Assembly (NCBI GenBank): GCA_035495955.1
Contig: DATJFE010000067.1
Location: 19,972 to 83,971, forward strand
From: Vicinamibacterales bacterium
GTDB lineage: Bacteria > Acidobacteriota > Vicinamibacteria > Vicinamibacterales > 2-12-FULL-66-21
DNA: 64,000 nt
Direction of reading: 5' to 3'
Shown here: positions 13,781 through 36,177 of the stretch, in pieces
How positions within the stretch are numbered: the stretch's first letter is position 1
How the letters are laid out: each line of letters opens with the position of its first letter
Translations under genes and position numbers: made by a program
Notes under the pieces: generated by a model
The model's database searches: none
Told to the model about the DNA's origin: nothing
What the model saw: only the letters and a program-made list of their open reading frames with translations

Positions 13781-13850
13781 CGGAGGTCGGGTGACGGAGG
13801 TCGGGTGACGGGGGTCGGGTGAGGGGGGTCGCGTGCCGGGGGTTCGAGGT
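13781..13850. repeat. 14-nt tandem repeat cggaggtcgggtga x~5, G-rich on the + strand, starting 2 nt after the stop
   Basis: cggaggtcgggtga cggaggtcgggtga cgggggtcgggtga ggggggtcgcgtgc cgggggttcgaggt. It contains a canonical G4 motif at 13803-13828 (GGG-4-GGGGG-2-GGG-3-GGGGGG). Confidence 0.85.
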
Positions 13851-13863
13851 TCCGAGCGGTCGT

Positions 13864-13902
13864 TACGAAAAAAGAAAGGCCGGACCCCGCGGATCCGGCC
13901 TT
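13864..13902 (-). terminator. intrinsic terminator on the minus strand
   Basis: Minus-strand reading: aaggccgga-tccgcgggg-tccggcctt (9-bp stem, 13876-13884 pairs with 13894-13902), followed by tcttttttcg. Confidence 0.8.
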
Positions 13903-14119
13903 GCCTCCCTCCCGAGCGAATCGGAAATCCGATTAGCACGAGGAGTGCCAGCTTCAGCCGCTCGTCTGCACCTTTGGTCCGACGTCTGGACGCTGCAGGT
14001 AACCTGCACCGCGACCGTCAGTTATCAACGATGACTTTTGACAACGACCTTCGTTGGACCGATCGTCGGCGCGGCCCGGATTCAAGGGCTTGAATCCGGA
14101 GATCCAAACGGGAGTTGTG

Positions 14120-15073
14120 TCAGTTGAAACCGGCAACCCGGCGACGCAGCGTCTTCACGTGCTCCCAGATTTGCGCTGACTCCGAAGACGCGCGTTCCTC
14201 TTCATTGCTCTCGTCTTGCATCGCGTGCGGATCCGGATCCGCGCCGTCGCCGTGCGGCATCAGACGTAGGTACGCTTCGAGATCGCGCAGCGCCGACGCG
14301 AAATCTTCCATGTGATACGCGAGAAGGCCGCGGTCGCGAAGCTCCGAGAGCGCCGAAGGGTCGACCGCGAGCAGCAGGTTCGCGATTGCGCGCGCTTGCG
14401 GAAACGATCGCATCCGCACGTAGAGCCGCTTGAGATTGACCAGCATACGCACGACGATGTGCTGGCGGGTGGCGGTGGCGAGGAGCGCGCGATCGAACGC
14501 CGCCTCCTCGCCGAGATGCTGCCGCAGCAGTTGGCGGCAGTCGACTTCCGACAGCAGGGCGCCGGCATGGAATGGATCGATGATCGCATCCTCGGCACCC
14601 GTCTCGCGCTCGCCTGGCGCGCGCACGAGGAAGTGGCCGGGGAAGTTGACGCCTTCGAGCCTGAGTCCGGCGCGGCGGCCGATCTCCATGTAGATCGCCG
14701 CGAGGCTGATTGGAATCCCGAGCCGTCGATCGAGGACCTCGTTCAGGAAACTGTTTCGTGGATCGTCGTAGCGATCGCGGTTGCCGCTGAAGCCCAGCTC
14801 TTCGTAAAGGTAGGTATTGAGCGTCGCAATGCGCGCCGCGGTGCCCGCGGCATCCTGCCGCCGCAGCCGTCCCGATGCGGCTTCCCCCATTCGCTCCAGG
14901 CGCTGCAGGTACGGAGCGGGGTCGAGCGCCGGGTACTCCACGCGCGCGATCGCCAGGGCCGCCGGCGCCAGCGCCTCCCCGGGCTCGTTCAGCGCGCCAA
15001 GCAGATCTTCGGTGATCTGCGGAAGCCGCGACTGCAGGGACAGCGGCACGGAGCGATTGTAACGCGGACGCAC
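14120..15073 (-). CDS. SirB1/YchA-like protein (transglutaminase-like N-domain + TPR)
   Basis: 317 aa: ...LNTYLYEELGFSGNRDRYDDPRNSFLNEVLDRRLGIPISLAAIYMEIGRRAGLRLEGVNFPGHFLVR... then TPR-like ...ARAIANLLLAVDPSALSELRDRGLLAYHMEDFASALRDLEAYL. GTG start at 15073. Confidence 0.8.
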   Translation of the reverse strand: MRPRYNRSVPLSLQSRLPQITEDLLGALNEPGEALAPAALAIARVEYPALDPAPYLQRLERMGEAASGRLRRQDAAGTAARIATLNTYLYEELGFSGNRDRYDDPRNSFLNEVLDRRLGIPISLAAIYMEIGRRAGLRLEGVNFPGHFLVRAPGERETGAEDAIIDPFHAGALLSEVDCRQLLRQHLGEEAAFDRALLATATRQHIVVRMLVNLKRLYVRMRSFPQARAIANLLLAVDPSALSELRDRGLLAYHMEDFASALRDLEAYLRLMPHGDGADPDPHAMQDESNEEERASSESAQIWEHVKTLRRRVAGFN

Positions 15074-15111
15074 TCAGGGGATATCGACGGCGGCCGCCGT
15101 GGGCTGCAGGC

Positions 15112-15222
15112 TCCGCAGCTCCCAACTCTCAGCTCCCCCATCCCCACTCCCAATCCGCGAGATCCGACATCCCACATCCGACCCCCGCCCCCGACCCCCG
15201 CCCCCCGACCCCCGACTCCCGA
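15112..15222. repeat. composite C-rich (on +) short-repeat tract between two minus-strand genes
   Basis: cagctcccaactctcagctcccccatccccactcccaatcc...gacccccgcccccgacccccgccccccgacccccgactcccgac. The right part (15182-15220) is a multi-tract G4 motif on the minus strand, directly after the HAD stop (15223-15225). Confidence 0.8.
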
Positions 15223-15879
15223 CTACAGGCGGCGGACGAACTCGGCCGTGATGGCATCCAGCGAGTCGACCACCACGTCGGCTTCGGTCAGCTTCTCGCG
15301 GGAATACGTGTGGGTCACCGCGATAGTCCGCATGCCCGCGCCGCGCGCCGACTGCAGCCCCCAGTGCGAGTCCTCGATCGCCGCGCAGCGCGCCGGATCG
15401 ACGCCGTGCAGTTCCGCGGCTCTGAGGTAGGGGTCCGGCGCCGGCTTGGTGCGTTCCGTATCGCCGGACGCGACGATGAAGCGGAACGCGCCGTCGAGGC
15501 CCGCGCCGCGCAGCATCAGCTCGATGTCGCGCCGCAGAGCGCCCGAGGCGATCCCGATCGGCCAGTGCGCCGACAGCCGGCGCACGCATGCGGCCGCGCC
15601 GCCATACAGGACGTCGGTGCCCGCGACGAGCGCCTCGAACCGGCGGCCCTTCTCGGCGATCAGCATCTCGATCTCCTCGTCGCCGAGCAGCAGTCCGTAA
15701 TCCGACGCCACCTGCCTGAACACGCCCTCGTCGTCGAATCCGAGATAGCGCGCGCAGTATTGCTCCTTCGTCAGCGAGACTCCGGCGGGCGCGAACAGTT
15801 CCTGATAAGTCCGCAGGTGGAGCGGCTCGGAGTCGGCCAGGACGCCGTCGAAATCGAAGACGATGGCTTTGATTGGCAT
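15223..15879 (-). CDS. HAD family hydrolase (beta-phosphoglucomutase/phosphatase-like)
   Basis: MPIKAIVFDFDGVLADSEPLHLRTYQELF... is the classic HAD motif I. ...IASGALRRDIE... then ...IEDSHWGLQSARGAGMRTIAV. ATG 15879 preferred; GTG 15915 is an alternative. Confidence 0.85.
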   Translation of the reverse strand: MPIKAIVFDFDGVLADSEPLHLRTYQELFAPAGVSLTKEQYCARYLGFDDEGVFRQVASDYGLLLGDEEIEMLIAEKGRRFEALVAGTDVLYGGAAACVRRLSAHWPIGIASGALRRDIELMLRGAGLDGAFRFIVASGDTERTKPAPDPYLRAAELHGVDPARCAAIEDSHWGLQSARGAGMRTIAVTHTYSREKLTEADVVVDSLDAITAEFVRRL

Positions 15880-15893
15880 CTCTCTCAACAGGC

Positions 15894-15951
15894 GATCAGG
15901 AGACCAGAGACTCACTCTCCTTGTACTGAAGATTCTCCTGTTCTCCTGATC
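15894..15951. repeat. 10-bp inverted repeat gatcaggaga / tctcctgatc in a caggag-rich spacer
   Basis: 15894-15903 gatcaggaga and 15942-15951 tctcctgatc. The same caggag/ctcctg words fill spacer 5460-5637. Confidence 0.65.
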
Positions 15952-15967
15952 TCCTGTGTCGCCGTCC

Positions 15968-16579
15968 TCACCGGTGCGGGGCAGCGAGGCGCTCGCCTGC
16001 GCGAATCGGAACTTTCAGCCGGTTCTCCGCGGGAGGGTACGGGCAGTCATAGGCGGGATTGAACAGGCAGAACGGGTGAAACGCGCGATTGAGATCCAAA
16101 TCGTAAAACCCCGTCGCCGTGCGTTCGAGCTCGAGATAGCGGCCCCCCTGATAGGTTTCGACGCCGTTGGTCAGGTCGCCGAACGGCACGAACAGCCGCC
16201 GCATGTCCTTTTCGCCCGCCTCGATGAACGCTCCCAGCGTCATCGGTCGTCCCTGGAGCGTGAACGACAGCGTGCCGACGCGCTGCATCTTCCGTCGCTG
16301 CCCTGTCGACGTCGGCATCTCGACGACCGGTCCCGGAGGCGCGGGCTGCAGGACCGCGGGAACGCGATAGGCCGGATCGACGGGAAAATATGACAGCGGT
16401 GGGAAGGACGCGCGCTGGGCTTCGGGAACGGGCGAATCCGCCGATTCGCGCATGAAACGGTCCTTTTGGGCGTGCCACTCCGCGATCTGGTCTGGGTAAG
16501 GCAGAGGTTCACGGCTGCAGGCTCCGGCGGCAATCGCGATCGCGCCGACCATCAGCCGCCGCCGAATCGAAGGTCCCAT
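15968..16579 (-). CDS. DUF1684 domain-containing lipoprotein
   Basis: 203 aa. Lipobox AAGAC. ...WHAQKDRFMRESADSP...FPPLSYFPVDPAYRV...GRYLELERTATGFYDLDLNRAFHPFCLFNPAYDCPYPPAENRLKVPIRAGE matches my memory of DUF1684. Confidence 0.8.
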   Translation of the reverse strand: MGPSIRRRLMVGAIAIAAGACSREPLPYPDQIAEWHAQKDRFMRESADSPVPEAQRASFPPLSYFPVDPAYRVPAVLQPAPPGPVVEMPTSTGQRRKMQRVGTLSFTLQGRPMTLGAFIEAGEKDMRRLFVPFGDLTNGVETYQGGRYLELERTATGFYDLDLNRAFHPFCLFNPAYDCPYPPAENRLKVPIRAGERLAAPHR

Positions 16580-16608
16580 CTCGTGTCGTGATATTTATAT
16601 CCTTTCTC

Positions 16609-17817
16609 ATGAACCGCATAGCTGGGGGCCTGCTTCTCCTTCTTGGCGTCGCCGCGTGCGGCCGCGACCGGGGACTCCAGGCGGCCGAAGGGCAGAAGGC
16701 GCGCCGCGTCAAGATCGAAACGGCGCAGGTCCGCGACGTCCGCCGCCAGGTCGATCTCGTCGGCACGCTTGCCGCGCAGGAGGAAGCCGTCGTCAGCGCC
16801 GAGGTTGCCGGGCGGGTCTCGCGCGTCGTTCGGGACCTGGGCGATCGGGTCGCGGCGGGCACGCCGCTGCTGGAGCTGGACCCCGAAAAACTGCAATATC
16901 GCGCCGAGGCGCAGCGCGCCGCGCTCGATCAGGCGCGCGCCCGCTACGGCGCGTCTGCCGGAGGGGAGCTGCCGCCGCTCGAGAAGGTTCCTACCGTCGT
17001 CAGCACGGCCGCGCAGATGGCCGACGCGCGGCAGCAGCTCGATCGGGCGACGAACCTGTCGTCGCGCAGCCTGCTGTCGCGATCGGATTTCGAGGCGGCG
17101 CAGACGCGATACGACACGGCGAAAGCGGCGCACGATCAGGCGCTCGCATCGGCGCGTCAGCTCCGGGCGGACATCGAAGCCCAGGCCTCGTCGCTCCGCC
17201 TGGCGGAGCGAGAGCTGCGCGACTCGGTGATCCGCGCGCCTTTCGACGGGTACGTCGCCGAACGCCTCGTCTCGCAGGGCCAGTTCGTCCAGCCGCAGGC
17301 GCCGGTCGTCCGTCTCGTCCGGCTGCAGCCGCTGAAGCTCACGGCGGAAGTGCCCGAGAAGTTTGCGCCCTGGATCGAAACGGGCCGGGCGCTCGCCATC
17401 AAGGTCGACGCGTTTCCCGATCGGACGTTCGCGGGCAAGGTCGTGCGCATCTCTCCAGCCGTCAGTCTGAAGTCCCGCGCGTTCGCCATCGAGGGAGAAG
17501 TGCCGAACCCCGACGGCAGGCTGAAGCCCGGCACTTTCGCGCGCGTTCAGATCGCGACCGATCGCGTCGAGCGCGCGGTCACCATCCCCGCCGCCGCGGT
17601 GCAGAGCCGCTACGGCACCAACCGCGTCTTCCTGGTGCAGAACGGACAGCTCGTGGGGCGCGAGGTCGTTCTCGGCGATCGCGTGGGCGACCGCGTGGAA
17701 GTCTCACAGGGGCTCGAGGCCGGCACGCCGATCGTCGCGGACGATGTCGAACAACTCGCGGAGGGGATGAAAGTAACTCCCAACTCCACAACTCTCAACT
17801 CCCAAGGCGTTCGGTGA
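16609..17817 (+). CDS. efflux RND transporter periplasmic adaptor subunit (MFP/HlyD family)
   Basis: MNRIAGGLLLLLGVAACG lipobox, coiled-coil hairpin region, then beta-barrel ...VIRAPFDGYVAERLVSQGQFV... ATG 16609 (GTG 16588 alternative). The C-terminal tail TPNSTTLNSQGVR is encoded by a heptamer repeat. Confidence 0.9.
   Translation: MNRIAGGLLLLLGVAACGRDRGLQAAEGQKARRVKIETAQVRDVRRQVDLVGTLAAQEEAVVSAEVAGRVSRVVRDLGDRVAAGTPLLELDPEKLQYRAEAQRAALDQARARYGASAGGELPPLEKVPTVVSTAAQMADARQQLDRATNLSSRSLLSRSDFEAAQTRYDTAKAAHDQALASARQLRADIEAQASSLRLAERELRDSVIRAPFDGYVAERLVSQGQFVQPQAPVVRLVRLQPLKLTAEVPEKFAPWIETGRALAIKVDAFPDRTFAGKVVRISPAVSLKSRAFAIEGEVPNPDGRLKPGTFARVQIATDRVERAVTIPAAAVQSRYGTNRVFLVQNGQLVGREVVLGDRVGDRVEVSQGLEAGTPIVADDVEQLAEGMKVTPNSTTLNSQGVR
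17775..17805. repeat. heptamer repeat caactcc x4 inside the 3' end of the adaptor gene
   Basis: aactcc caactcc acaactc tcaactcc. This is the reverse complement of the gggagtt-type repeats at 4331 and 26868. Confidence 0.75.
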
Positions 17818-17830
17818 GGTCGTTGAGTTC

Positions 17831-20800
17831 ATGACCATCGCCGGTTTCTGCGTCAGGCGCCCCGTCTTCACGACGATGCTCGTCGTGCTGCTCGTCGTCA
17901 CGGGCATTTTCTCGTTCCGCGATCTCAGCGTCGATCTGCTGCCCAAGGCCGATCCCGCCGTCGTCAACGTCCAGCTCCTGCTTCCGGGCGCCAGTCCCGA
18001 CGAGCTCAACAGCGCCGTCGTCGAGCCGACCGAGCAGGCCCTCAGCAGCATCTCCGGCATCGACGAGATGACGACGCGCATCACGGAAGGATCGGCGCGC
18101 ATCTCGCTCAGATTCGTGCTCGAGCGCGAGATCAACGACGCCGCGCAGGATGTCCGCGAGAAGGTCGCGCAGGCGCGGCGGGACTTGCCGCCAGAGCTTC
18201 TCCCGCCCGTCATCACCAAGGTCGATCCGGACGCCGATCCCGTGATCAGCTTCTCGGTCTCCGGGCCGCTGCCGATCCGCGCGCTGACGGAAATCGCGCA
18301 GAAGCAAATCGCCCGCGCGATTCAGACGGTCGACGGCGTCGGCGAAGTGACGGTCGAGGGCGGACAGGCGCGCGAGATCCACATCATTCTCGACGTCGAG
18401 AAGCTCAACGCGCACGGCCTGACGGTCGACAAGGTGCGCGACGCGATTGTCGCCCAGAACGTCGAGATCCCCGGCGGCTACATCGAGCAGGGGGACGCCG
18501 AGCTCTCGCTTCGAACGCTCGGCCGGATCGAATCCGCCGGCCAGTTCGAGAACATCGTGGTCGCGTCGGCCGGATCGACGCCCATCCGCATCCGCGATAT
18601 CGCGTCGGTCGAGGATTCCAGCGAAGAGGCCCGCTCCGAAGCGATGTTCGACGGCGAGCGGACGGTGGTGATGGACGTGCGACGCCAGTCAGGCGAGAAC
18701 ACGGTGAAAGTCGTGGACGCCGTCAAGGCGAAGCTGGCGGCGGTCCGCCGGACGCTGCCGCCGGACGTGAAGCTCACGCCGACGCGCGACGACTCGGTCT
18801 TCATTCGCGCGTCGATTGCGTCGCTCAACGAGCACCTGCTGCTCGGCAGCCTGCTCGCCAGCCTCGTGATCATGCTGTTCATCCGGAACCTGCGGGTCGT
18901 CCTCATCTCGTCGCTCGCGATTCCGGCGTCGATCATCGCCAGCTTCGCGCTCATCCGCGCCGCCGGCTTCACGCTGAACAGCATGACGCTGCTCGCGCTC
19001 ACCCTTGCCGTCGGGATCGTCATCGACGATGCGATCGTCGTGCTGGAGAACATCTTCCGTCACATGGAAGAGGAGGGCGTTCCGCCGTTCACGGCGGCGA
19101 TTCAGGGAACGAACGAAGTGTCGCTGGCGGTCATCGCCACGTCGGTGTCGCTGATCGTCATCTTCCTGCCTCTCGCGTTCATGACGGGCTACACACAGCG
19201 CTTCATCTACCCGTTCGGCCTGACGATGGCGTTTGCCGTCATGGTGTCGCTGCTGGTGAGCCTCACGCTGACGCCGATGCTCAGCGCGCGCATGATACGG
19301 ACCGACGGCCGGGTGCATCGCCACGGCGAAGGCTTCTCCGGGAAGCTGGGCGCATGGTACCGACGGAGCCTCGAATGGTCGCTCGATCACCGCGGGGTGA
19401 TCGTCGCAATCAGCGCGCTCGTGTTCGCGACGAGTTTCGTGCTGACCGGGCGCGTGGGCCGATCGTTCCTGCCAAACGAGGACATGGGCGAGTTCCAGCT
19501 CATCGTCGACACGCCGGAAGGCACGTCGCTGCGGGGCACGGAAAAGACGCTCGATACCCTGACGAGGCAGCTCAGGAACATTCCGGGCGTGGCGCACGTG
19601 ATGCCCACGGTGTTCGAGCGCGTCAACCATTCGCACATCTTCGTGCTGCTCAAGCCGCTCGGCGAACGCCGCCAGTCACAGGAGGAGATTGCGGCGAACG
19701 TCCGGACGATGGCGGCCGCCCATCCGTCGCTGAAGCCGACGATTCTGATGCGCACGCCGATCGGCGGCGGCGAGGGCCAGGCCTACCCGATCATGGCCAA
19801 CCTGACGGGACCCGATCTGCGGACCCTGGCGGTGTACGCCTTGAAGCTGCTCGGCGACGTCGAGAAGCTGCCCTACATCAGCGACTCGAAGGCGGTCGTG
19901 AATCTGTCGAACCCCGAACTGCGCGTCGCGGTCGATCGGCAGCGCGCCGCGGACCTCGGCGTGCGCGTGGACGATCTCGCGAGCGCCCTCCGGCTGATGG
20001 TGAGCGGCGAGGACGAGATCTCGAGCTACCGTGAGGCCGGCGAGCGATATCCGGTGACCATTCGCGTGCGCGAGAACCAGCGATCCGACATGGCGGCGAT
20101 CGGCAGCCTGATGGTGCCCTCGGTGCGCGGCGAGCCCGTGCGCGTCGACAACGTGGCGACGCTCACGCGCGGGTTCGGCCCGACCACGATCCAGCGCCTC
20201 AACCGCCAGTTCTCCGTCGGCGTCTATGCCGACATCAAGCCCGGGCAGCCGCTCGATCAGGCGCTCCGCGCAATCAGCGCGCGGGCGAAATCCCTGAGCC
20301 TGCCGCCCGGGTACGGCGTGAAGTTCACGGGCCAGTCGAAGCTGCTCGACGAGACGACGAACAACATGGTGCTGGCGCTTGCCCTCGCCAGCGTCTTCAT
20401 CTACATCGTCCTCGCGATGCAGTTCGAGAGCTTCGTGCAGCCGCTCGTGATCATGACGGCGCTGCCGCTGTCGGTGCCCTTTGCGCTGTTGACGCTGTGG
20501 ATGACGGGGCGCGTCCTGAATCTGTGGAGCGCGCTGGGCGTCCTGCTGCTGCTCGGAATCGTGAAGAAGAACTCGATCCTGCAGGTCGATTACACGAACG
20601 TCCTCCGCCGGCAGGGGATGCCGCTGCGCGAGGCGCTGGTGCAGGCGTCGGAGACCCGGCTGCGGCCGATCCTCATGACGACCGCGGCCATCGTCGCCGG
20701 CCTGATCCCGACGGCGCTGGGCGTCGGCGCAGGCGCCGCGCAGCGGGCCGACATCGCCGTCACGATCGTCGGGGGCCAGTCGCTCTGCCTGTTCCTGACC

Positions 20801-20905: not shown

Positions 20906-20916
20906 CGACGGATCGC

Positions 20917-23331: not shown

Positions 23332-23345
23332 CTCATTGCTCCGTT

Positions 23346-25894: not shown

Positions 25895-28018
25895 TCAATT
25901 CCGCAGCGGCTTCCCGGTCTTCAGCGTGTACGCGATCCGCTCGAGCGTCTTGCGCTCGCCGCACAGGCTGAGAAACGCCTCGCGTTCCAGATCCAGCAAC
26001 TGCTGTTCGCTGAGCGTCGCCGGGTGCGCGAGGCTGCCGCCGGCGAGAATCCACGCGAGCTTGCGGCCGATGAGTGCGTCGTGATCGCTGATGCGGCCGG
26101 CGCGCCATGCGAGATGGACGCCGAGCTTGAGCGCCGCGAACACGCCTTCTCCGCCGACGCGGATCGCGTCGCGCGGCCGCCTCGCCGGGCGGTGGCCCGG
26201 CGCGAGCTGGAGCGCCAGAGCCTTCGCGTCCGCGAGGAGACGGTCGCGGTTCATGGTCACCTCGTCGGCGTCGCGCAGATAGCCGATGCGGCGCGCATCG
26301 GGCGCGCTCGTTCCGACCTTCGCGAATCCGATCGTCTCGAAGACGCGCTGCACGTAGGGAAGCGGATCCCCCGGTCCAGGCGCGTCCTCCATAGCGCGCG
26401 CCAGCATTTCCTTCGTCCCGCCACCCGCGGGAATCAGGCCGACGCCGACCTCGACGAGCCCGATATAGGCCTCGGCGGCGGCCTGCACGCGGCTCGCGTG
26501 CAGCACGATCTCGCAGCCGCCGCCGAGCGTCAGCCCGGCAGGCGCGACGACGACGGGGACGTCCGCGTGCTTCAGCGCCATCGTGGCGGCCTGAAATGCG
26601 CGGACCATGAGATCCACTTCGTCCCAGTTGCCTTCCTGGGCTTCCAGCAGCAGGAGCATCAGGTTGGCCCCGGCGGAAAAATTCGGCGCGTCGTTGGCGA
26701 CGACCAGCGCGGCGAAATTGCGCGACGCTTCCGCAACGCCCGCGCGGAGCATCTCGATCGTGTCGCCGCCGATGGCGTTCATCTTCGAATGGAAGACCAC
26801 CTGCAGCACGCCGTCGCCGATATCGACAAGCGATGCGCCGGGGTTCTTGCGGACGACGCGTGACGCCTTGGGAGTCGGAGGTTGGGAGTTGGGAGTTGTC
26901 AAGACCGCCCGCGTTTCGAGCGGCCCCAGTTCCCAGCCAAAGCCCCAACGCATCGCCTTGTCGATGTCGGCGGGGGAGTACGCGATCTCGTCCGCGATCT
27001 TCTCCGTGTAGTCGAGCGTCGGTCCGAGCGTGGCCCGAAGAAACGCGCCGACCTTGTCCTTCCCTTCGTACAGCGTCCGGATACGCGCGCCGGTGGACTC
27101 GATTGAGCGCGCGGCCTCCAGCGACGGCAGCTTCGGGGTGTGCTTCGCGCGGTACTCGAGCGTGTGCGGATCGAGCACCAGGATCGCGTCGCCATTCTTC
27201 TCGTAGAACCCGCGGCCGGCTTTCGCCCCGATCATCCCCCGCGCGAGCATTCCGGCGACGAACTCAGGCAGCTCGAATGACAGCGTGCGCGCGACGTGCG
27301 CGAGAACGTCGACGCCCGCGATATCGACGGTCCTGAACGTGGCGCTCTTCGGCCGGCCGATCACGGGTCCCGTGATCGCGTCGACCTCCTCGATCGTGTA
27401 CTCGCCGGACTCGACGGCCCGCAGCACCTGCACGAGACCGAAGATGCCGATCCGATTGGCGATGAAGCCGGGAACGTCTTTCGCGAGCACGACGCCCTTG
27501 CCGAGCCGCCGATCCGCGAACTCCCCGATCGCCTCCACCACGCGTGGATCGGTCTCGGCCGTCGGGATCAGCTCCAGCAGGTGGAGATACCGGGGCGGAT
27601 TGAAGAAGTGCGTGCCGAGCCAATGACGGCGGAAACCGTCCGTTCGTCCCACGGCGATCGACGCGATCGGAATTCCTGACGTATTGGAGCTGACGACGGC
27701 GTCGGCGCGGCGGACGCCATCGACGCGCGCCATCAGCGCCTGCTTCGCGTCGAGCTTCTCGACGATCGCCTCGACGATCCAGTCTGCGTCGCCGATCGAC
27801 GGCAGGTCCTCGTCGAAGCCGCCGGTCGCGATCAACGACGCGGCGTCCGCGGTGAAGAAGGGCTCGGGCTTGAGCCGCTTCGCGCGCTCCAGCCCTTCGC
27901 GCGCGGCGTCGCGCGTCACGTCGAGCAGCCGGACGCGCAGGCCCGCATTCGCCGCGTGCGCCGCAATCTGCGCCCCCATCACGCCGGCTCCCAGCACGGC
28001 CGCGGACCGGACTCTCAT
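25895..28018 (-). CDS. fadN: bifunctional 3-hydroxyacyl-CoA dehydrogenase / enoyl-CoA hydratase (FadN-type domain order)
   Basis: MRVRSAAVLGAGVMGAQIAAHAANAG (NAD fold) ... then crotonase part ...VVFHSKMNAIGGDTIEML...ALVVANDAPNFSAGANL... 707 aa from ATG 28018, which overlaps the tetR stop (ATGA). Confidence 0.9.
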   Translation of the reverse strand: MRVRSAAVLGAGVMGAQIAAHAANAGLRVRLLDVTRDAAREGLERAKRLKPEPFFTADAASLIATGGFDEDLPSIGDADWIVEAIVEKLDAKQALMARVDGVRRADAVVSSNTSGIPIASIAVGRTDGFRRHWLGTHFFNPPRYLHLLELIPTAETDPRVVEAIGEFADRRLGKGVVLAKDVPGFIANRIGIFGLVQVLRAVESGEYTIEEVDAITGPVIGRPKSATFRTVDIAGVDVLAHVARTLSFELPEFVAGMLARGMIGAKAGRGFYEKNGDAILVLDPHTLEYRAKHTPKLPSLEAARSIESTGARIRTLYEGKDKVGAFLRATLGPTLDYTEKIADEIAYSPADIDKAMRWGFGWELGPLETRAVLTTPNSQPPTPKASRVVRKNPGASLVDIGDGVLQVVFHSKMNAIGGDTIEMLRAGVAEASRNFAALVVANDAPNFSAGANLMLLLLEAQEGNWDEVDLMVRAFQAATMALKHADVPVVVAPAGLTLGGGCEIVLHASRVQAAAEAYIGLVEVGVGLIPAGGGTKEMLARAMEDAPGPGDPLPYVQRVFETIGFAKVGTSAPDARRIGYLRDADEVTMNRDRLLADAKALALQLAPGHRPARRPRDAIRVGGEGVFAALKLGVHLAWRAGRISDHDALIGRKLAWILAGGSLAHPATLSEQQLLDLEREAFLSLCGERKTLERIAYTLKTGKPLRN
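26868..26898. repeat. gggagtt-type heptamer repeat inside fadN, encoding the interdomain linker
   Basis: ttgggagtcggaggttgggagttgggagttg on +. Read on the minus strand it encodes LTTPNSQPPTPKAS, between the dehydrogenase and hydratase parts. Confidence 0.75.
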
Positions 28019-28671: not shown

Positions 28672-29484
28672 CTACCGCCACCGGGTAAGGATCGTTTCCC
28701 GCTCGAAAAGCGCCACGCTCAGCAGGACCAGCACGACCCAGACGGCGGTCATCGCCCCCGAGGCGGCGACGAGCATCCAGGTCGAGATGTAGAACAGCCC
28801 CGACAGTTGGCCGACGAGCATCCCGGCGAGCGGCAGCACCAGCAGGACCGCGATCTGCTGCGCGCTGCGCGCGTCGTTCACGCGCGACGACACCGCGATC
28901 GCCGCCTGCAGCGCCGCCAGCGACGCGAAGGGCCCCAGAATGCCGAGCAGGAGCACAGTACGCATTGTCAATAGCGTCGCAAGGACGCCCGGGGACCCGA
29001 GCGCGGCGATCAGCGCCAGGTAGACAACGGTCCCGGCCGCCTCGATCGCCACTGCGGGCAGAAAAGCGGCCACCGCCTTCGCGACCAGCAGTTCCACCGT
29101 CGAGACCGGCGTCGTCAGCAGCGGTTCGAGCGTGCGTCCCTGTTTCTCGCCGACCACGGCGTACGCCGCGAGCGAGACGGCGCCGACGATCGGCGCCATG
29201 AGGAACAGCATCAGGAACTGCTGGAACATGAACGCCTCCGCCGCGGTCTGCGCGTCGAGCGCCGCAAGCGCCGGAAGATGCCCCGTGGCGGCTGCGACCA
29301 CCTGCTGCATGCTCCGGTCGTCCGCGATCGACTGGCCTGTGGCACGGGGCACCACGACGACGACGACGAACGGGAGGATCGTGCAGAGGACCACGACGAT
29401 CAGCACGGGAATGATGACCGATGGATTCGCGCGGAATTCGCGGATCTCCTTGCCGACGAGGACGGCAATCCGACGCACGTTCAT
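28672..29484 (-). CDS. ABC-2 type transporter permease
   Basis: MNVRRIAVLVGKEIREFRANPSVIIPVLIVVVLCTILPFVVVVV... 270 aa, about 6 TM segments. Its ATG overlaps the ATPase stop (ATGA). Confidence 0.8.
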   Translation of the reverse strand: MNVRRIAVLVGKEIREFRANPSVIIPVLIVVVLCTILPFVVVVVVPRATGQSIADDRSMQQVVAAATGHLPALAALDAQTAAEAFMFQQFLMLFLMAPIVGAVSLAAYAVVGEKQGRTLEPLLTTPVSTVELLVAKAVAAFLPAVAIEAAGTVVYLALIAALGSPGVLATLLTMRTVLLLGILGPFASLAALQAAIAVSSRVNDARSAQQIAVLLVLPLAGMLVGQLSGLFYISTWMLVAASGAMTAVWVVLVLLSVALFERETILTRWR

Positions 29485-30401: not shown

Positions 30402-30412
30402 GTGAGCTCAGT

Positions 30413-30445
30413 CCCGATATCCGACACCCGACACCCGACACCCGG
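30413..30445. repeat. heptamer repeat ccgacac x3 in the divergent promoter region
   Basis: cccgatat ccgacac ccgacac ccgacac ccgg. It is G-rich on the minus strand, which is the sense strand of the ABC operon 5' leader. Confidence 0.8.
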
Positions 30446-30457
30446 CGCCCCATGTCC

Positions 30458-30483
30458 GACCCCAGGTGTATAGTGACCCCAGG
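30458..30483 (+). promoter_or_regulatory. direct repeat gaccccagg x2 flanking a tatagt -10-like box upstream of csoR-like gene
   Basis: gaccccagg (30458-30466) tgtatagt gaccccagg (30475-30483). ATG at 30508 is preceded by aaagaagga. Confidence 0.3.
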
Positions 30484-30507
30484 CTCCCCGCGAGAAAAGA
30501 AGGACCC

Positions 30508-30783
30508 ATGCTGGACGAGGCGCAGCAGCAGGCTATCGTCACACGATTGAATCGAATCGAGGGCCAGGTGCGGGGCATCCGGCGGATGGTCCAGGAGCCG
30601 CGGCTCTGCATCGAGATTCTTCAGCAGCTCGCGGCCGCGGAAGCTGCCCTCAATCGGATCAGCCTCGCGGTGTTCCGGTTTCATGTCGAGAAGTGCGTCC
30701 CGGAAGGAGTCGTCAAGGGCGATCCGGAGCGCAGCCAGCGGCTCAGCGAGCTGGTCGACATCTTCGATCGCTTCGCAAAGTAG
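30508..30783 (+). CDS. CsoR/RcnR/FrmR family metal-sensing transcriptional repressor (C-H-C fingerprint)
   Basis: MLDEAQQQAIVTRLNRIEGQVRGIRRMVQEPRLCIEILQQLAAAEAALNRISLAVFRFHVEKCV... Cys, then His 25 residues later, then Cys 4 residues later, as I recall for Cu(I)-sensing CsoR. Confidence 0.85.
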   Translation: MLDEAQQQAIVTRLNRIEGQVRGIRRMVQEPRLCIEILQQLAAAEAALNRISLAVFRFHVEKCVPEGVVKGDPERSQRLSELVDIFDRFAK

Positions 30784-30994
30784 CGCGTCCCTTCATCCAG
30801 CCGATTGAATCTCCGGATTCGTCCGTTCGGATCCGGACAACTGACTCATCCGTAGTATCCCGTCTAAGTCATTGAAATATCATGGCAAGTTCCCCTTGCT
30901 TTTTTCGCGCGTGCGTTTGCATAGTGAAGTGTCCGGGTCCGTACACCGTCCGGTCGTGCTATTCGATTCGGTCTTCTTTCTGTGGAGGATGGAG

Positions 30995-33886
30995 ATGGGA
31001 GTTCGATTGGCAAGAACGGTGGTGTTGTCCGCGGCCGTCGGGATACTGACGGCGTTTGCAGCACCATCAGCAGCGCAGGTTGCCTCGGGGCGTATCGACG
31101 CCACCGTGAGCGACACAACCGGCGCCGTGCTTCCAGGAGTCACGGTCGACATCAGCGGTCCTCAAAGCCGGACCGCCGTCACCGACACGCTCGGCGAGGT
31201 TCACTTCCTGAATCTCTCGCCCGGCACCTACAGCGTCAGCGCGAAGTTGACGGGCTTCAGCGACTATCTGAACAAGAACCTCCCGGTGGCGACCGGCACG
31301 AGCGTCCCGCTCAAGATCTCGATGTCGATCGCCGGCGTCTCGACACAGGTGCAGGTCACGAAAGAAGCGCCCGTGATCGACACCAAGAAGATGACGACGT
31401 CGACCAACGTCAGCGTCGAGGAGCTCCAGAACATTCCGTCTGCGCGCGACCCGTGGGTCGTGATGCAGACGATCCCCGGCATCGTCCTCGATCGCGTGAA
31501 CGTGGGCGGCGGCGAGTCGGGGCAGCAGCCCGGCTACCAGGCGAAGGGAGCGAACGGCGGCGACAACACGTGGAACATGGACGGCATCGCGATCACCGAC
31601 ATGGCCGCCACCGGTTCCAGCTCGACGTACTACGACTTCGACATGTTCCAGGAGATGCAGGTCACGACGGGCGGCGCCGACGTATCGAACCCGACGCCGG
31701 GCATCCAGTTGAACATGGTGCTGAAGAGCGGCAGCAACACGCCGCACGGCTCGACGCGGTTCTATTTCGAGAACGAGAGCCTCGAATCGAACAACATGCC
31801 GTCGGATCTCGCCGCGACGATCGGCGGCACGAGCGGCAAGGGCAACCGGATCCATCAGTACAAGGACTACGGATTCGAGCTCGGCGGGCCGATTCTCAAG
31901 GACCGCCTCTGGGGTTGGGGCGCAGCCGGCAAGACCGACATCCAGCTCCTGACGCTCACGGGGTATCCGGATCACACAATCCTTCAGGACACCTCGTTCA
32001 AGGGCACCGGACAACTGTCGACGTCAACGCGCGCGAACTTCACGTTCTTCCGCGGCAACAAGCAGAAGTTCGGCCGTAGCGCGAGCTCGACCCGGCCGCC
32101 GGAGACGACTTACGATCAGAGCGGCCCGACCGACATGTACAAGGGCGAGGTGAACTTCGTGCTCGGGAACAACATCTTCCTCGTCGCGAAGGGCGCCCAC
32201 ATCCACGGCGGATTCCAACTGGCGCCTGAAGGCGGCATCAACGCGCAGGAGTGGATTGACGATGCCGGCGTCCAGCACGGGACTGCGGACCTCTATAAAT
32301 CGAACCGCCCGCAGGACTCGATTGGCCTGGACGGGAGCGTGTTCCGCGGGCACCACGAGCTGAAATTCGGCTACGGCTGGCGCCGGGCGCCGGTGCAGTC
32401 GTCCGACGTCTATCCGGGCAATGGCGTCATCACGGCGCACAACGGATATCCCGAGATGATTGCGTATATCCGGCGCAATTGGGCCAGCTCGGAAACCGGC
32501 GTCTATAACAGCGCCTATGCCTCCGATACCTGGACGTTGAATCGACTGACCGCCAATCTCGGCCTTCGCTGGGATCGCCAGGTCAGCTCGCTCGAGGCGG
32601 CGTCGGTTCCCGGCAGCACGGTCCTGCCGAGTCTCCTGCCCGCGATCTCGACCACGGCCGTGAAGAACGCCGTCGTGTGGAATACGGTGGTGCCGCGGCT
32701 CGGGGTCACCTACGCGATTGACGAGAATCGCAAGACGATCCTTCGCGGCAGCTACGCGATGTTCGCGTCTCAGCTGGGCGACGCCGTGGCGAGCCAGATC
32801 TCGACGATTCAATACACCGGGATCTACTACTACGCGATCGATCTCAACGGAAACAAGCTCGCGGATCCGAACGAGATACTGTTCAATCTGGGACCGATCA
32901 ATTACTACGGCTTCGATCCGAGCAATCCGACCAGCGCGACGACCAACAACAAGATCGGCAAGTATACGACGCCGCGCACGCAGGAGGTTCTGCTTGGCAT
33001 CGATCACGAGCTGATGGCCAACTTCGGCGTCAGCGCGACGTTCACGTATCGCTATTACAACCACTTCGACTGGTATCCGCTCATCGGCGTCACGCGCGCG
33101 GACTACAGCCAGGCGGGTGTGTGTACGTCGAGTGCTGCCCCCTGCGCGCCGGCGAACGGGGACACGGGTCCCGTCGGTTCGTTCAGCACGCCGTATTTCG
33201 GGATAAATCCTGCGAAGATCCCTCCCGGCCAGGGCACCAGCTATGAGGCGCGGAATGGTTACCACCAGCGCTTCCTCGGAGCCGAGCTGAGCGCCACCAA
33301 GCGCATGTCCGATCGCTGGATGGCCAGGTTCGGTTTCTCGACAAACGATCACCGCGAGTACTTCGATAATTCGAACACGTCGCAGCTCGATCCGACATCG
33401 ACGCGCGACAACCCGAACATCAACGGCGGGCACGTCATCACCCGATCGGGCGGGAGCGGCAAGAGCAACATCTTCCTCGTGCTGCCGCAGTATCAGTTCA
33501 CGGCCAACGGGATGTACCAGGCTCGCTGGGGCATCAACCTCGGCGCGAACTGGGTCTTGCGGCAGGGATATGCTGAGCCCTTCTATCGAAGCCGCGTGAA
33601 TCCCGGGGACGGACTGGGGTTTAGAAATGTACTGGCCGTCACAGACGTCACCAAATTCCGGCTGCCGGCCGTCAGCTCGCTCGACGTACGTGTGGAGAAA
33701 GCATTCCAGATTCGTCGTGCAAAAGCTGCCGTCGACCTGGACATCTTCAACATCGGCAACGCCGCGACCGTGCTCGGCCGCCAGTACGACTTGCGTCTGA
33801 GCACCAGCAGTCCCACGGGGTTCAACCATGTCCTGGAGATCATGGATCCGAGGGTCGCTCGCATAGGAGTCCGGTTCAACTTCTAG
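30995..33886 (+). CDS. TonB-dependent receptor-like outer-membrane protein with carboxypeptidase-regulatory-like N-domain
   Basis: MGVRLARTVVLSAAVGILTAFAAPSAAQ signal. GVTVDISGPQSRTAVTDTLGEVHFLNLSPGTYSVSAKLTGF. Plug-like QVQVTKEAPVIDTKKMTTSTNVSVEELQNIP. C-terminal ...RIGVRFNF. ggagg lies 6 nt before ATG 30995; ATG 30989 is an alternative. Confidence 0.85.
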   Translation: MGVRLARTVVLSAAVGILTAFAAPSAAQVASGRIDATVSDTTGAVLPGVTVDISGPQSRTAVTDTLGEVHFLNLSPGTYSVSAKLTGFSDYLNKNLPVATGTSVPLKISMSIAGVSTQVQVTKEAPVIDTKKMTTSTNVSVEELQNIPSARDPWVVMQTIPGIVLDRVNVGGGESGQQPGYQAKGANGGDNTWNMDGIAITDMAATGSSSTYYDFDMFQEMQVTTGGADVSNPTPGIQLNMVLKSGSNTPHGSTRFYFENESLESNNMPSDLAATIGGTSGKGNRIHQYKDYGFELGGPILKDRLWGWGAAGKTDIQLLTLTGYPDHTILQDTSFKGTGQLSTSTRANFTFFRGNKQKFGRSASSTRPPETTYDQSGPTDMYKGEVNFVLGNNIFLVAKGAHIHGGFQLAPEGGINAQEWIDDAGVQHGTADLYKSNRPQDSIGLDGSVFRGHHELKFGYGWRRAPVQSSDVYPGNGVITAHNGYPEMIAYIRRNWASSETGVYNSAYASDTWTLNRLTANLGLRWDRQVSSLEAASVPGSTVLPSLLPAISTTAVKNAVVWNTVVPRLGVTYAIDENRKTILRGSYAMFASQLGDAVASQISTIQYTGIYYYAIDLNGNKLADPNEILFNLGPINYYGFDPSNPTSATTNNKIGKYTTPRTQEVLLGIDHELMANFGVSATFTYRYYNHFDWYPLIGVTRADYSQAGVCTSSAAPCAPANGDTGPVGSFSTPYFGINPAKIPPGQGTSYEARNGYHQRFLGAELSATKRMSDRWMARFGFSTNDHREYFDNSNTSQLDPTSTRDNPNINGGHVITRSGGSGKSNIFLVLPQYQFTANGMYQARWGINLGANWVLRQGYAEPFYRSRVNPGDGLGFRNVLAVTDVTKFRLPAVSSLDVRVEKAFQIRRAKAAVDLDIFNIGNAATVLGRQYDLRLSTSSPTGFNHVLEIMDPRVARIGVRFNF

Positions 33887-34012
33887 CCGCGGACTACGGC
33901 CGCGGACTACGGCCGCGGAATACGGCCGCGGAATACGCGGAATACGCGGACTACGGCCGCGGAACATGCGGACTACGGCCGCGGAATACGCGGAATACGC
34001 GGAGTACGGAAC
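33887..34012. repeat. tandem array of ~12 units cggaMtacg with optional gccg insert (period 9/13), starting at the base after the stop codon
   Basis: ccgcggactacgg ccgcggactacgg ccgcggaatacgg ccgcggaatacg cggaatacg cggactacgg ccgcggaacatg cggactacgg ccgcggaatacg cggaatacg cggagtacgg. Confidence 0.9.
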
Positions 34013-34031
34013 GTAAACGCGGTACACTAAA

Positions 34032-34068
34032 CCCCCGGAGCGGCTGCGGCGGCTCCGGGGTTTTTTTT
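34032..34068 (+). terminator. strong intrinsic terminator
   Basis: ccccggagc (34033-34041) pairs with gctccgggg (34052-34060), a 9-bp GC stem followed by eight T (34061-34068). Confidence 0.9.
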
Positions 34069-34120
34069 GCGAACCTGTTTCGCCGAAGCGAAGCGGAGGC
34101 GTGCCAGCGCCATTTTCCAA

Positions 34121-34231
34121 GGCGCGAGGTGCGCGAGGTGCGTGGGGTGCGCGAGGTGCGTGGCGTGCGTGACGTGCGCACTCCCCGCACCCCTCGCACG
34201 CCTCGCACTTCGCGCACATCCTCGCACCTCA
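34121..34231. repeat. 9-nt tandem repeat (gcgcgaggt x6) followed by its inverted counterpart (cctcgcac-type x5): a ~110-nt imperfect hairpin ending 9 nt before the next start codon
   Basis: gcgcgaggt gcgcgaggt gcgtggggt gcgcgaggt gcgtggcgt gcgtgacgt gcgcact | ccccgcac ccctcgcac gcctcgcac ttcgcgcac atcctcgcac ctc. Confidence 0.85.
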
Positions 34232-34239
34232 AGGTCTCA

Positions 34240-36072
34240 ATGTCCCGGATGCAGAAGTCGGGCGCGGCGCTCGCGCTCGCGGTACTGATCGCGGCCTGCG
34301 GTGGCGGCGGCGGAAACAGCGGCAGCAACTCGGGCTCCAATCCTGGCGGCGGCACGACGCCCGCGGCCAATCCGTGCACCGCGGCCGGCGCGGCGGACGT
34401 GCAGGCCGTCGGAAGCGTCGCGGCCGGCGCCGGCGTGCCGGACAAGAAAACGCTCATCGACGGCAACCCGCGCGGCCGGCTCGCCGAGGCGCTCTGGATC
34501 CACCAGGAGGCGCAGCAGCGGCGCGCGGCACGCCCCGCGGGAGCGGGCGCCCAGCCGTCCCTCACCACGCCGTCTCCCGTCGCGGACGACGTCGGAGAGA
34601 TCGCCGTTCTCCAGGATCAGGGCGACCTCATACTGGCGGCGAATCCGTACGATCTCCGCAGTACGGGCATACGTTTCACCCGCAACGGCTCGAGCTACAC
34701 GCTGTCGAAGATCGACGGAACCTTCCGGACGTCGCTCGGCAACCAGGTCACGCTGGGCGACGACGACAGCACCGGCGTCGCGATTCCATTCTCATTTCCG
34801 TTCTACGGAATCGCGCAGACCTCCGCGTTCGTCAATTCCGATGGCAACATCACGTTCGGCGAGGAAGACAAGGAGAGCACCGAGCGCAACGTCTCGCGCC
34901 TGCTCGCCGGCGCCCCACGCGTCGCGCCGTTCCTCGCGGATCTCGATCCCACGTCCGGCGGAAAGATCTTCGTCAATGCCGCGGCGGATCAGTACACCGT
35001 GACGTGGTGCAGCGTACGCGGATTCGATTCGACGCGCACGACGACGGCTCAGGCGACGCTGCTGCCCGACGGAAGCGTCGAGATGAAGTACGGCGACACC
35101 ATCACGCTGACCGACGCGGTGGTCGGGATCTCGCCGGGCCACACGGGCACCTTCACGACCGCCGATTTGAGCGTCGCCGCTGCCGTTTCCTCGAGCGGCG
35201 CCATCGGCGAGCGCTTCGCGCAATCCGGCACGCTCGATACGCAGGCGGTCGCGAAGAAGTTCTACGCGTCGCATCCGGACAACTACGACCAGATCCTGCT
35301 GTGGAGCGATCAGCCGCTCATACACGACGCGTTCGCGTACGAGGTCACGGTGGCGAACGAGATCCGCGGCATCGGACAGGACATCTTCGACCTGTCGACG
35401 GCTTTCGGCAGCGCCGGACGGCTTCGCTCGCTGGTCGTGATGGACTATCTCGGAAAATACCCTGACGATCCGACGGCGAAATTCCTGGGCGAGAACAACA
35501 CGCTCAGCGTCATGGGCCAGGAGGTCGGCCACCGGTGGCTGGCGTACCTCGAGTTCCGGGATCGGACCGGCGCGCGCTCCGACGTGCTGCTCGGACGCGA
35601 TCTGGCGCACTGGAGCTTCTTCTTCAATTCCGACGCGTCGGTGATGGAAGGCAACCAGATCGAGGATCAAGGCGGCGGCCAGTTTAGGACGGTCGATGCG
35701 GTCAAGCGCTACAACCGCCTCGATCAGTACGCGATGGGGCTCGTGCCGCCGAGCGCCGTGCCGCCGTTCTTCTACGTCGAGAGCCCGACCACCACGCATT
35801 CGCGGGAGGACGCGCCGCAGATCGGCGTCTCGTTCACGGGCACGCGCCGCGACGTGCTCGTAGACGACGTGATCGCGATCGAGGGAGCGCGCGCGCCCGC
35901 GTCCGCCGATTCATCGAAGACCCATCGTCAGGCCTTCATCTACATCGTCGGCGCCGGACGCGGCACGGATTCGGGCCAGGTGGCCAAGCTCGATCGCGTT
36001 CGCTCGGCGTGGGAGCCGTTTTTCGCGCAGGCGACAGAAGGCCGCATGACGGCCGTCACGCGACTTCATTAG
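34240..36072 (+). CDS. lipoprotein with NIDO-like N-terminal region and metzincin/leishmanolysin-like C-terminal region carrying QEVGH in place of HExxH
   Basis: MSRMQKSGAALALAVLIAACGGGGG lipobox. ...VAIPFSFPFYGIAQTSAFVNSDGNITFGEEDKES...RVAPFLADLDPTSGGKIFV... then ...LSVMGQEVGHRWLAYLEF...LAHWSFFFNSDASVMEGNQ. The codons gtc atg ggc cag gag gtc ggc cac were checked directly. The upstream 37 codons of ORF 34129 are repeat-derived (RTPRTPRT). Confidence 0.6.
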   Translation: MSRMQKSGAALALAVLIAACGGGGGNSGSNSGSNPGGGTTPAANPCTAAGAADVQAVGSVAAGAGVPDKKTLIDGNPRGRLAEALWIHQEAQQRRAARPAGAGAQPSLTTPSPVADDVGEIAVLQDQGDLILAANPYDLRSTGIRFTRNGSSYTLSKIDGTFRTSLGNQVTLGDDDSTGVAIPFSFPFYGIAQTSAFVNSDGNITFGEEDKESTERNVSRLLAGAPRVAPFLADLDPTSGGKIFVNAAADQYTVTWCSVRGFDSTRTTTAQATLLPDGSVEMKYGDTITLTDAVVGISPGHTGTFTTADLSVAAAVSSSGAIGERFAQSGTLDTQAVAKKFYASHPDNYDQILLWSDQPLIHDAFAYEVTVANEIRGIGQDIFDLSTAFGSAGRLRSLVVMDYLGKYPDDPTAKFLGENNTLSVMGQEVGHRWLAYLEFRDRTGARSDVLLGRDLAHWSFFFNSDASVMEGNQIEDQGGGQFRTVDAVKRYNRLDQYAMGLVPPSAVPPFFYVESPTTTHSREDAPQIGVSFTGTRRDVLVDDVIAIEGARAPASADSSKTHRQAFIYIVGAGRGTDSGQVAKLDRVRSAWEPFFAQATEGRMTAVTRLH

Positions 36073-36177
36073 CGGGTGACGGGGGACAGGGGAGGGGTGT
36101 CGGAGGACGACCTCCCCGACGCCCGACCACCCCCAACGCCCGACCTCCGACCCCCGACGCCCGACGCCGACGCCCGT
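36073..36177. repeat. G-rich arm / C-rich arm low-complexity tract filling the whole spacer between two convergent stops
   Basis: gggtgacgggggacaggggaggggtgtcggagg acga cctccccgacgcccgaccacccccaacgcccgacctccgacccccgacgcccgacgccgacgcccg. Canonical G4 motif on + at 36074-36097. Multiple GGG tracts on the minus strand at 36110-36176. Confidence 0.85.

Follow-up and report, generated by a model that had tools for sequence, protein, structure and literature searches.

The G-quadruplex (G4) motifs that follow stop codons in a 64-kb stretch (hereafter, the window) of the genome of a soil Vicinamibacterales bacterium (Acidobacteriota) belong to a class of fast-changing, slippage-prone heptamer arrays found across the lineage, of which they make up the G-rich minority; the arrays abut stop codons and present their G-rich side first on the sense strand of the preceding gene. 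Since the G4 motifs form a minority of a much larger heptamer set, four-stranded folding is probably incidental to the repeats. We tentatively prefer, with a rough probability of 0.45, the explanation that the heptamer arrays act as structured 3′-end or intergenic elements in Vicinamibacterales and that the G4 is secondary.

The window has a GC content of 66% and comprises 57 kb of coding DNA and 7.1 kb (11%) of intergenic DNA. Its nearest relatives are Vicinamibacterales/Acidobacteriota metagenome-assembled genomes (MAGs), and one window protein is identical to a “MAG TPA ... Vicinamibacterales bacterium” protein. Related loci (given L numbers) were fetched around orthologues of gene 34240–36072 (13 genome and 80 metagenome loci), together with 10 further syntenic loci (L094–L103, 184 kb) around orthologues of gene 46123–48546; the comparative set comprised 882 kb from 90 related loci, including 72 kb of non-coding DNA. 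For gene calling, we trained a codon log-odds model on the window sequence, and by inspection its calls appeared to agree with those supplied with the 10-locus set. Tandem arrays were located using Tandem Repeats Finder (TRF). Canonical G4 motifs were defined as four runs of at least three G with loops of 1–7 nt on a single strand and were found by regular-expression scan, with G4Hunter scores computed besides. RNA was folded using ViennaRNA with its G4 model (z-scores against shuffles), and terminators were sought across the data set with a simple hairpin-plus-T scan.

Heptamer arrays at stop codons

A first-pass annotation had pointed to four G-rich sites directly after stops. Base-by-base reading bore out its G-run patterns and stop distances throughout, and at all four the G-rich strand has the sense orientation of the just-ended gene. 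The plus-strand motif at 13803–13828 (GGG-TGAC-GGGGG-TC-GGG-TGA-GGGGGG) starts 24 nt past the TGA at 13777–13779 and lies in a G-rich array (13781–13843, +) with 4.5 copies of a 14-nt unit composed of two heptamers (CGGGGGTCGGGTGA); the stop itself can be read as the beginning of the first unit. At 36074–36097 (+), the motif (GGG-TGAC-GGGGG-ACA-GGGG-A-GGGG) starts 2 nt past the TAG at 36070–36072, inside a G-rich arm (36073–36109; GGGTGAC GGGGGAC AGGGGAG GGG...) that lies directly 3′ of gene 34240–36072 and is the counterpart of a (GGGGGAC)n array in L014, the closest relative. The facing minus-strand tract (36110–36176) adjoins the stop (36178–36180) of the TPR gene 36178–38250; it belongs to an arm of CGTCGGG units (36110–36177; x8.6, TRF 36115–36176 as CCCGACG) that holds a G4 motif at 36114–36141. 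The fourth tract (15182–15220, −) adjoins the minus-strand stop at 15223–15225 and has the highest G4Hunter score of the window (3.24; the four sites peak at 2.0–3.24). Here the whole spacer between two minus-strand genes (15074–15222) consists of degenerate heptamers that are G-rich in the sense direction, including GGGTCGG x6.7 at 15178–15223 (TRF CCGACCC) and TGTGGGA x6.4 at 15134–15179, and it has no complementary arm. The genes flanking these sites are real, as indicated by HAD hydrolase, TPR, and transglutaminase-like matches or conserved orthologues; they include a conserved 610-aa protein, orthologues of which occur in many relatives, and one weak NT5C match.

The annotation had omitted both the heptamer-array nature of all tracts and a fifth intergenic motif (30427–30451, −), which is held by a TGTCGGG x4.6 array (30413–30451, −; TRF 30413–30444, CCCGACA). 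Because this motif lies in a divergent spacer, 5′ of both genes, it does not follow a stop. In total, the 64 kb contain six canonical G4 motifs, compared to 1.9 ± 1.3 in dinucleotide shuffles. Five are intergenic (1.5 expected from spacer-by-spacer shuffling, with 1 of 200 shuffles reaching five), and the 57 kb of coding DNA hold one. Every intergenic G4 motif of the window falls in a degenerate period-7 or period-14 array.

Across the 882 kb, we identified 145 intergenic tandem arrays, a density of 2.0 per kb of intergenic DNA vs. 0.24 per kb of genic DNA. Their fundamental periods were 7 in 83 cases, 14 in 10, and 21 in three; genic arrays had periods that were mostly multiples of 3. These arrays are heptamer simple-sequence repeats (SSRs), i.e., head-to-tail 7-nt copies in non-coding DNA at many loci, with units that differ from locus to locus. 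A stop is found no more than 30 nt away from 65 of the 107 arrays with period 7 or 8 (or multiples); distances of 10 nt or less make up 52% of those measured to a stop, compared to 15% of those to a start. The stop codon itself is overlapped by about 40% of the stop-abutting arrays. Examples with the stop inside the first unit are window 13777–13794 and 15220–15225, L014 3526–3540, and L073 3207–3215; forms of such units are TGA(T)CGGAGGTCGGG preceding TGACGGAGGTCGGG, TAGGCTT with its TAG, and AGTCGGG with its AG. The pattern points to tandem duplications across the stop codon, which would leave the protein unaltered, as the seeds of arrays. At L102 6376–6520, an array of about 20 AGCGGAT copies, among the longest seen, fills a convergent spacer with one G-rich strand and no inverted partner.

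The 83 period-7 arrays comprise 58 distinct units with no common core or shared consensus. Runs of at least three G or C occur in 25 of the 58 units, a modest, 1.5-fold excess over the 28% that random heptamers of intergenic composition would give (p = 0.011). A canonical G4 motif arises only where the unit happens to hold at least three consecutive G, which is the case in a minority of arrays (sense G4 motif in 13 of the 65 stop-abutting arrays). G4 capability mostly follows from the amplification of GC-rich heptamers.

Array length changes by whole units. L016 and L017 (99.8% identical; 12 mismatches in 8.8 kb) differ by a single indel, one 7-nt unit inside an array. Likewise, the sole indel between the window and L094, which comes from another sample (99.94% identical; four mismatches in 6.85 kb), is 21 nt long and corresponds to three TCGGTCA units at 48549, with fewer in L094. 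The window array concerned (TCGGTCA x7.4, 48549–48600, +; not G4-capable) fills the convergent spacer 48547–48605, and on a third contig the spacer at this site measures 38 nt vs. 59 nt, again 21 nt shorter. Exact-protein look-ups of genes 14120–15073 and 15223–15879 yielded no other assembly across the G4 arrays; the strain comparisons are those of the non-G4 TCGGTCA and L016/L017 arrays. The arrays thus grow and shrink by whole units, as slipped-strand mispairing predicts, and their units change fast between relatives. In the spacer 3′ of the 610-aa gene, the units found in relatives include GGGGGAC (L014), GGCTCAG, ATGCCAA, GGCTTTG, GGGCTCA, GGCGATG, CAACTCC, and AGCTCCC, among others, and some relatives have only a small hairpin, or nothing. 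By hand count from a listing, an array is present in about 30 of 62 spacers of at least 40 nt downstream of this gene; a sense G4 motif occurs there only in the window, L014, and L089.

A strand-aware count upheld the proposed bias of G4 motifs relative to stops (16 sense vs. 3 antisense within 80 nt; p = 0.004). Leaving out the window gave 13 vs. 3 (p = 0.02), counting per distinct spacer gave 14 vs. 3 (hand count), and tracts with G4Hunter scores of at least 2.0 were distributed 8 vs. 0. Elsewhere the strands were nearly balanced (4 vs. 3 before starts; 8 vs. 7 in coding DNA). The bias holds, but it is not G4-specific. Stop-abutting arrays have more G than C on the sense strand in 43 vs. 16 cases (p = 6e-4), and the same direction is found in arrays devoid of any G4 motif (30 vs. 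12, p = 0.008), in those lacking GGG or CCC (15 vs. 7), and after collapsing to exact-unit families (28 vs. 9, p = 0.003). Start-abutting arrays show the opposite composition (C>G, 16 vs. 7). The 10 syntenic loci L094–L103 have no G4 motif after any stop in 184 kb, and their arrays are likewise G-first. A palindrome is identical on both strands, so for inverted pairs the rule reads G-rich arm first and C-rich arm second in either direction of transcription. Given that the motifs are units of hypervariable heptamer arrays and that the polarity persists without any G4 motif, the idea that the G4 fold is itself the selected trait is not supported.

Three other sources of the polarity were considered. 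A replication-strand cause was rejected as unlikely because two sites 1.4 kb from each other, 13803 (+) and 15182 (−), use opposite strands, in each case that of the preceding gene. Ascertainment bias, in which C-rich arrays devoid of stop triplets would be hidden in open reading frames (ORFs), accounted for two to three cases, too few to remove the polarity and all at one orthologous site (window 26868, L022, L026). A role as backup stops in three frames was unsupported, with 9 of 63 stop-abutting arrays qualifying on the sense strand vs. 17 of 63 on the antisense strand.

Hairpins and terminators at gene ends

Where a spacer holds two arrays, one is often the inverted copy of the other. In convergent spacers, we found two arrays that are mutual reverse complements, so that each gene is trailed on its own sense strand by one common unit. 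An inverted array pair in such a position makes the whole spacer a long hairpin. Predicted spacer folds reached −118.8 kcal/mol in L014 (z −11), −37.9 kcal/mol in L010 (z −5.5), and −74.3 kcal/mol in L004 (z −3.2). In the window, the arm at 36110–36177 is roughly complementary to that at 36073–36109, and the convergent spacer (36073–36177) is therefore a degenerate hairpin of inverted arrays (−51.5 kcal/mol, z −1.5). Inverted pairs also occur in co-directional spacers, e.g., L008 (3912/4374), L002 (3505/4100), L100 (16019/16073), and L077. Scanning all spacers crudely for 7-mer inverted repeats gave too much noise (114 spacers scoring vs. 47 after shuffling), and manual and array-based counts were used instead. 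A different kind of hairpin, not built of tandem units, was seen at 4192–4278, where a perfect 30-bp inverted repeat (4192–4221/4249–4278) with a 27-nt loop begins 15 nt past the stop of gene 2171–4177.

Whether a G4 is predicted depends on what is folded along with it. Isolated G-rich arms retain the G4 in the minimum-energy fold, and for 15225–15074 (−) the G4 dominates the prediction (−116 vs. −65 kcal/mol). The G4 is lost from the predicted minimum-energy fold when the complementary arm (36070–36180) or a downstream hairpin (13777–13900) is included.

The genome uses ordinary hairpin-plus-U terminators, as evident from three canonical examples in the window: 9893–9930 (+), which follows gene 6534–9818 and has a clear U run; 13902–13876 (−), a hairpin with a T run that lies 33 nt downstream of the plus-strand G-rich array; and about 34033–34070 (+), a hairpin with U8 after the array at 33886–34008. 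None of the four G-rich tracts is followed by the T run of an intrinsic terminator. Two to three window cases show the order stop, array, terminator-type hairpin: 33886–34008, 13781–13843 (with a weak plus-strand U run), and a loosely repetitive tract at 9819–9890. In these cases, the array is part of the 3′ untranslated region and does not take the terminator's place. Across the data set, a canonical terminator was found for 10 of the 102 post-stop spacers that contain arrays, compared to 44 of the 177 array-free ones (p = 0.0025); for spacers with a sense G4 array, the count was one of 16. These counts are suggestive, but no proof, of arrays and canonical terminators being alternative occupants of a spacer, and the deficit lends weak support to a 3′-end role. 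Of the earlier proposal that G4s assist or substitute for termination or stability at the 3′ end, the expected strand bias and the lower number of canonical terminators stand; no feature singles out the G4 fold as the one selected.

Next to these sites, about 220 nt (13903–14119) separate the stop of minus-strand gene 14120–15073 from its terminator at 13902–13876. It may represent a long 3′ untranslated region, or else a small gene or RNA that escaped annotation; it has no Rfam match.

Other arrays and elements

The window contains at least 10 more intergenic arrays of 7-, 8-, or 9-nt units, none of them G4-capable. Those next to gene ends include AGGCGCG x7.7 in the sense direction (43633–43686, −), which adjoins the stop at 43687 of a minus-strand gene, and CATGAGC x5 (11380–11415, +), which fills the 34-nt spacer between two plus-strand genes. 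The array at 33886–34008 (+) begins at the stop of a TonB-dependent receptor gene and has the pattern CGCGGA(A/C)TA(CGGC) with periods of 9, 13, and 22 (units CGCGGAATA and CGCGGACTACGGC). Upstream of the start at 34240, two adjoining 9-nt arrays (34122–34227, +) consist of GCGCGAGGT followed by the roughly complementary CGCACTCCT. Another 9-nt array (49960–50011, −; CCGCGGAAC on the plus strand) marks the junction of two minus-strand genes. Further arrays were located at 50923–50949 (TCGAGGC), 17775–17805 (AACTCCC), and 1876–1902 (CCCCAATT). Two octamer arrays on the minus strand read as tandem Shine-Dalgarno-like motifs in the sense direction (CAGGAGAA/CAGGAGG), one upstream of the HAD gene (15933–15957) and the other (5506–5527) upstream of gene 4758–5393.

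One heptamer array is coding. CAACTCC repeats at 26868–26898 lie in frame within minus-strand gene 25895–28018 (FadB-type fusion), between the 3-hydroxyacyl-CoA dehydrogenase and enoyl-CoA hydratase domains, and are translated as a linker (...TTPNSQPPTPK...). In L022 and L026, the corresponding gene also carries arrays, and the ORF terminates 150–260 nt further on. A change of one unit would shift the frame, so that a switch between split and fused genes, or a sequencing artefact, is possible.

In several relatives (L049, L053, L064, L068, L072, L077, L085, and L089), a TATAAT box lies 5–8 nt before the next start (GTTCTATAATCCGGGCATG) downstream of the 610-aa gene. Its placement suggests that the mRNAs may be leaderless. 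Several heptamer arrays extend as far as this putative −10 box, which places them over the −35 region and the promoter sequence upstream of it. The spacers also harbor a recurrent REP-like palindrome, (G)CTTCCGCCT-NNA-GGCGGAAG(C), seen in L002 (about 17411), L022, L068/L070, L077, L079, and L090. It sometimes occurs as two inverted copies and is apparently a dispersed element distinct from the heptamer arrays; a REP-like palindrome of the form CTTCCGCC-N-GGCGGAAG in relatives is likewise unrelated to them.

Finally, a 41-nt direct repeat (98% identical; 53741–53781 and 62665–62705) corresponds to the 3′ half of tRNA-Glu(CTC), the only match in an Rfam covariance-model scan of the window at gathering score. 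The repeats bracket an 8.9-kb segment of lower GC content (0.60–0.64) that encodes a sulfatase, a radical-SAM/SPASM maturase, a MacB-type permease, and an Rv0623-like antitoxin. The segment resembles an island inserted at the tRNA gene, and no integrase was identified.

Explanations and known systems

If the arrays are structured gene-end elements, they would be transcribed as 3′ untranslated or intergenic RNA, and this RNA would form a bulky structure, namely a hairpin if a complementary arm is available and perhaps a G4 if it is not. Such structures could separate neighboring transcription units in spacers devoid of a hairpin-plus-U terminator, either because transcription stalls or ends there or because 3′ exonucleases are blocked. 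The G-rich side may come first because exposed C-rich RNA, which would load Rho, is selected against, and this would require no selection for G4s. The four noted sites do not have the C-rich, G-poor, unstructured RNA of a rut site: the sense RNA is G-rich at 4/4, and it is the antisense transcript that would be C-rich.

Several observations weigh against a function of this kind. Many orthologous spacers have no array, which makes the arrays dispensable. When units were grouped by single linkage, the polarity was reduced to 11 vs. 4 and was not significant, leaving the independence of the arrays uncertain. When spacers were required to have at least 70 nt not occupied by the array, the terminator deficit weakened to 8 of 46 vs. 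42 of 131 (p = 0.06). G-U wobble asymmetry, a potential sign of RNA-level selection, gave no signal (the sense strand folds better in six of 12 co-directional spacers); sense and antisense fold equally, and G-U pairing is therefore no sign of selection on RNA. Some signs are specific to G-runs and count against the secondary role assigned to the G4, namely the excess of G3+/C3+ units, the 8 vs. 0 distribution of high-scoring G4Hunter tracts, and the 15074–15222 tract.

The strongest competitor, possible if on balance unlikely, is that the arrays are a neutral by-product, with slippage products persisting where they are harmless and with polarity and terminator deficit arising from purifying selection against harmful arrangements or from limited spacer space. 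The region after a stop would be safe in this sense, since the protein is unchanged by a tandem duplication that takes in the stop. Hypervariable copy number, the diversity of units (58 in 83 arrays) without consensus, irregular presence and absence at orthologous spacers, and the roughly 40% of stop-abutting arrays that overlap the stop codon all fit this explanation, as does the absence of a better-folded strand, and the terminator deficit is partly due to the spacer length outside the array. Harder to accommodate are the consistency of the polarity after stops (43 vs. 16) and its reversal before starts, as well as the density of two arrays per kb of intergenic DNA, which is very high for a compact genome. 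The near-perfect 129-nt hairpin of L014 (z = −11) also speaks against neutrality and suggests that arm pairing is maintained or was recently homogenized.

A more specific functional version, which we regard as doubtful, would make the stop-abutting, G-first arrays lineage-specific 3′-end elements free of U tracts that terminate or insulate transcription instead of canonical terminators, forming a G4 when solo and a long hairpin when paired in inverted orientation, with slippage causing heritable cell-to-cell variation in read-through into the downstream gene.

It is improbable that the G4 per se, as RNA or as non-template DNA, is selected after stops for termination or 3′-end protection, as the first-pass annotation envisaged. 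In its favor are the 16 vs. 3 and 8 vs. 0 strand counts, the 1.5-fold enrichment of G3+ units, the presence of a canonical terminator in only one of 16 spacers with sense G4 arrays, and the predicted dominance of the G4 at 15225–15074 (−) and in isolated G-rich arms. Against it, sense-strand G4 capability is limited to 13 of 65 stop-abutting arrays, orthologous sites carry AT-containing non-G4 units (e.g., ATGCCAA, GGCTCAG, GGCTTTG), and the polarity is present in arrays without any G4 motif. In addition, the predicted hairpin beats the G4 once the complementary arm is transcribed, the 184 kb of L094–L103 have no post-stop G4 motif, and the motif at 30427 does not follow a stop. Least probable of all is multivalent binding of an RNA- or DNA-binding protein to each array, an idea with precedents in the TAACTGA repeats of Beggiatoaceae (PMC4679880) and the heptamers upstream of Nostoc genes (bioRxiv 10.1101/2022.06.06.494920) and with some appeal where arrays reach the TATAAT box of the next gene in relatives or have Shine-Dalgarno-like units (CAGGAGAA at 15933–15957), but units differ at orthologous sites, and 58 units in 83 arrays with no common core make a single sequence-specific binder unlikely.

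Vicinamibacteria are abundant soil bacteria with almost no molecular genetics. If the polarity and the terminator shortage are functional, the arrays would be simple, variable gene-end marks in a high-GC phylum with sparse hairpin-plus-U terminators, and they would provide a concrete sequence set for Term-seq and reporter assays. Even if they are mere slippage products, the finding keeps its value: G4 scans of GC-rich genomes will catch tandem repeats, and a strand bias by itself is no proof of selection for G4 folding. The whole-unit differences in copy number could be used as strain markers in metagenomes.

Among known systems, the repetitive extragenic palindromes (REP/BIME) of enterobacteria are structured 3′ untranslated or intercistronic repeats, often located within a few nt of stops, that protect upstream mRNA and interfere with terminating ribosomes. 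Their unit is a consensus palindrome common to the whole genome, and they do not form tandem arrays, unlike the repeats described here, which have no shared consensus and thus are not REP/BIME elements. Bacterial G4 motifs are known to be enriched in intergenic DNA near gene boundaries (PMC12563890); that survey emphasizes the start-proximal side, whereas the motifs described here lie on the sense strand after stops and are built of tandem arrays. Our literature search found no report of a sense-strand, G-rich-first polarity after stops, of G4 motifs after bacterial stop codons, or of repeats of this type in Vicinamibacteria or Acidobacteria.

The closest parallels are tandem heptamers. In filamentous cyanobacteria, 7-bp short tandemly repeated repetitive (STRR) arrays form hairpins between hupS and hupL, for which a role in transcript stability or translational coupling was suggested (PMC2670836). 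The arrays of Vicinamibacterales resemble STRR sequences in their 7-bp intergenic tandem units, in the number of different units per genome, and in their intergenic hairpins. They differ in their GC-rich, often G4-capable units in a 66% GC genome, and in their stop-abutting preference and G-first polarity, neither of which is described for STRR sequences in the literature searched. Because the window and its relatives belong to Vicinamibacterales/Acidobacteriota and not to cyanobacteria, the arrays are STRR-like, not STRR. Heptamers are the commonest class of 5–11 nt prokaryotic repeats, with polymerase slippage as their proposed origin (Mrazek 2007, as summarized in PMC4679880). Long SSRs are similarly non-coding and scattered over phyla according to the same summary, and whole-unit indels between strains occur here too; as summarized there, the survey does not list Acidobacteria among repeat-rich genomes and mentions neither a polarity relative to stops nor inverted pairs. 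The TAACTGA repeats of marine Beggiatoaceae (PMC4679880) and the GGGACCG x4 elements of Geobacter metallireducens are likewise intergenic tandem heptamers at tens to hundreds of loci with a proposed regulatory role. In these cases, one unit dominates each genome and TAACTGA lies just upstream of starts, in contrast to the dozens of units found here, mostly just downstream of stops; a single-unit heptamer system is also known upstream of Nostoc genes (bioRxiv 10.1101/2022.06.06.494920). The arrays of Vicinamibacterales are thus of the STRR-like, long-SSR type in a new lineage, and their G-first polarity and terminator deficit are the parts worth pursuing.

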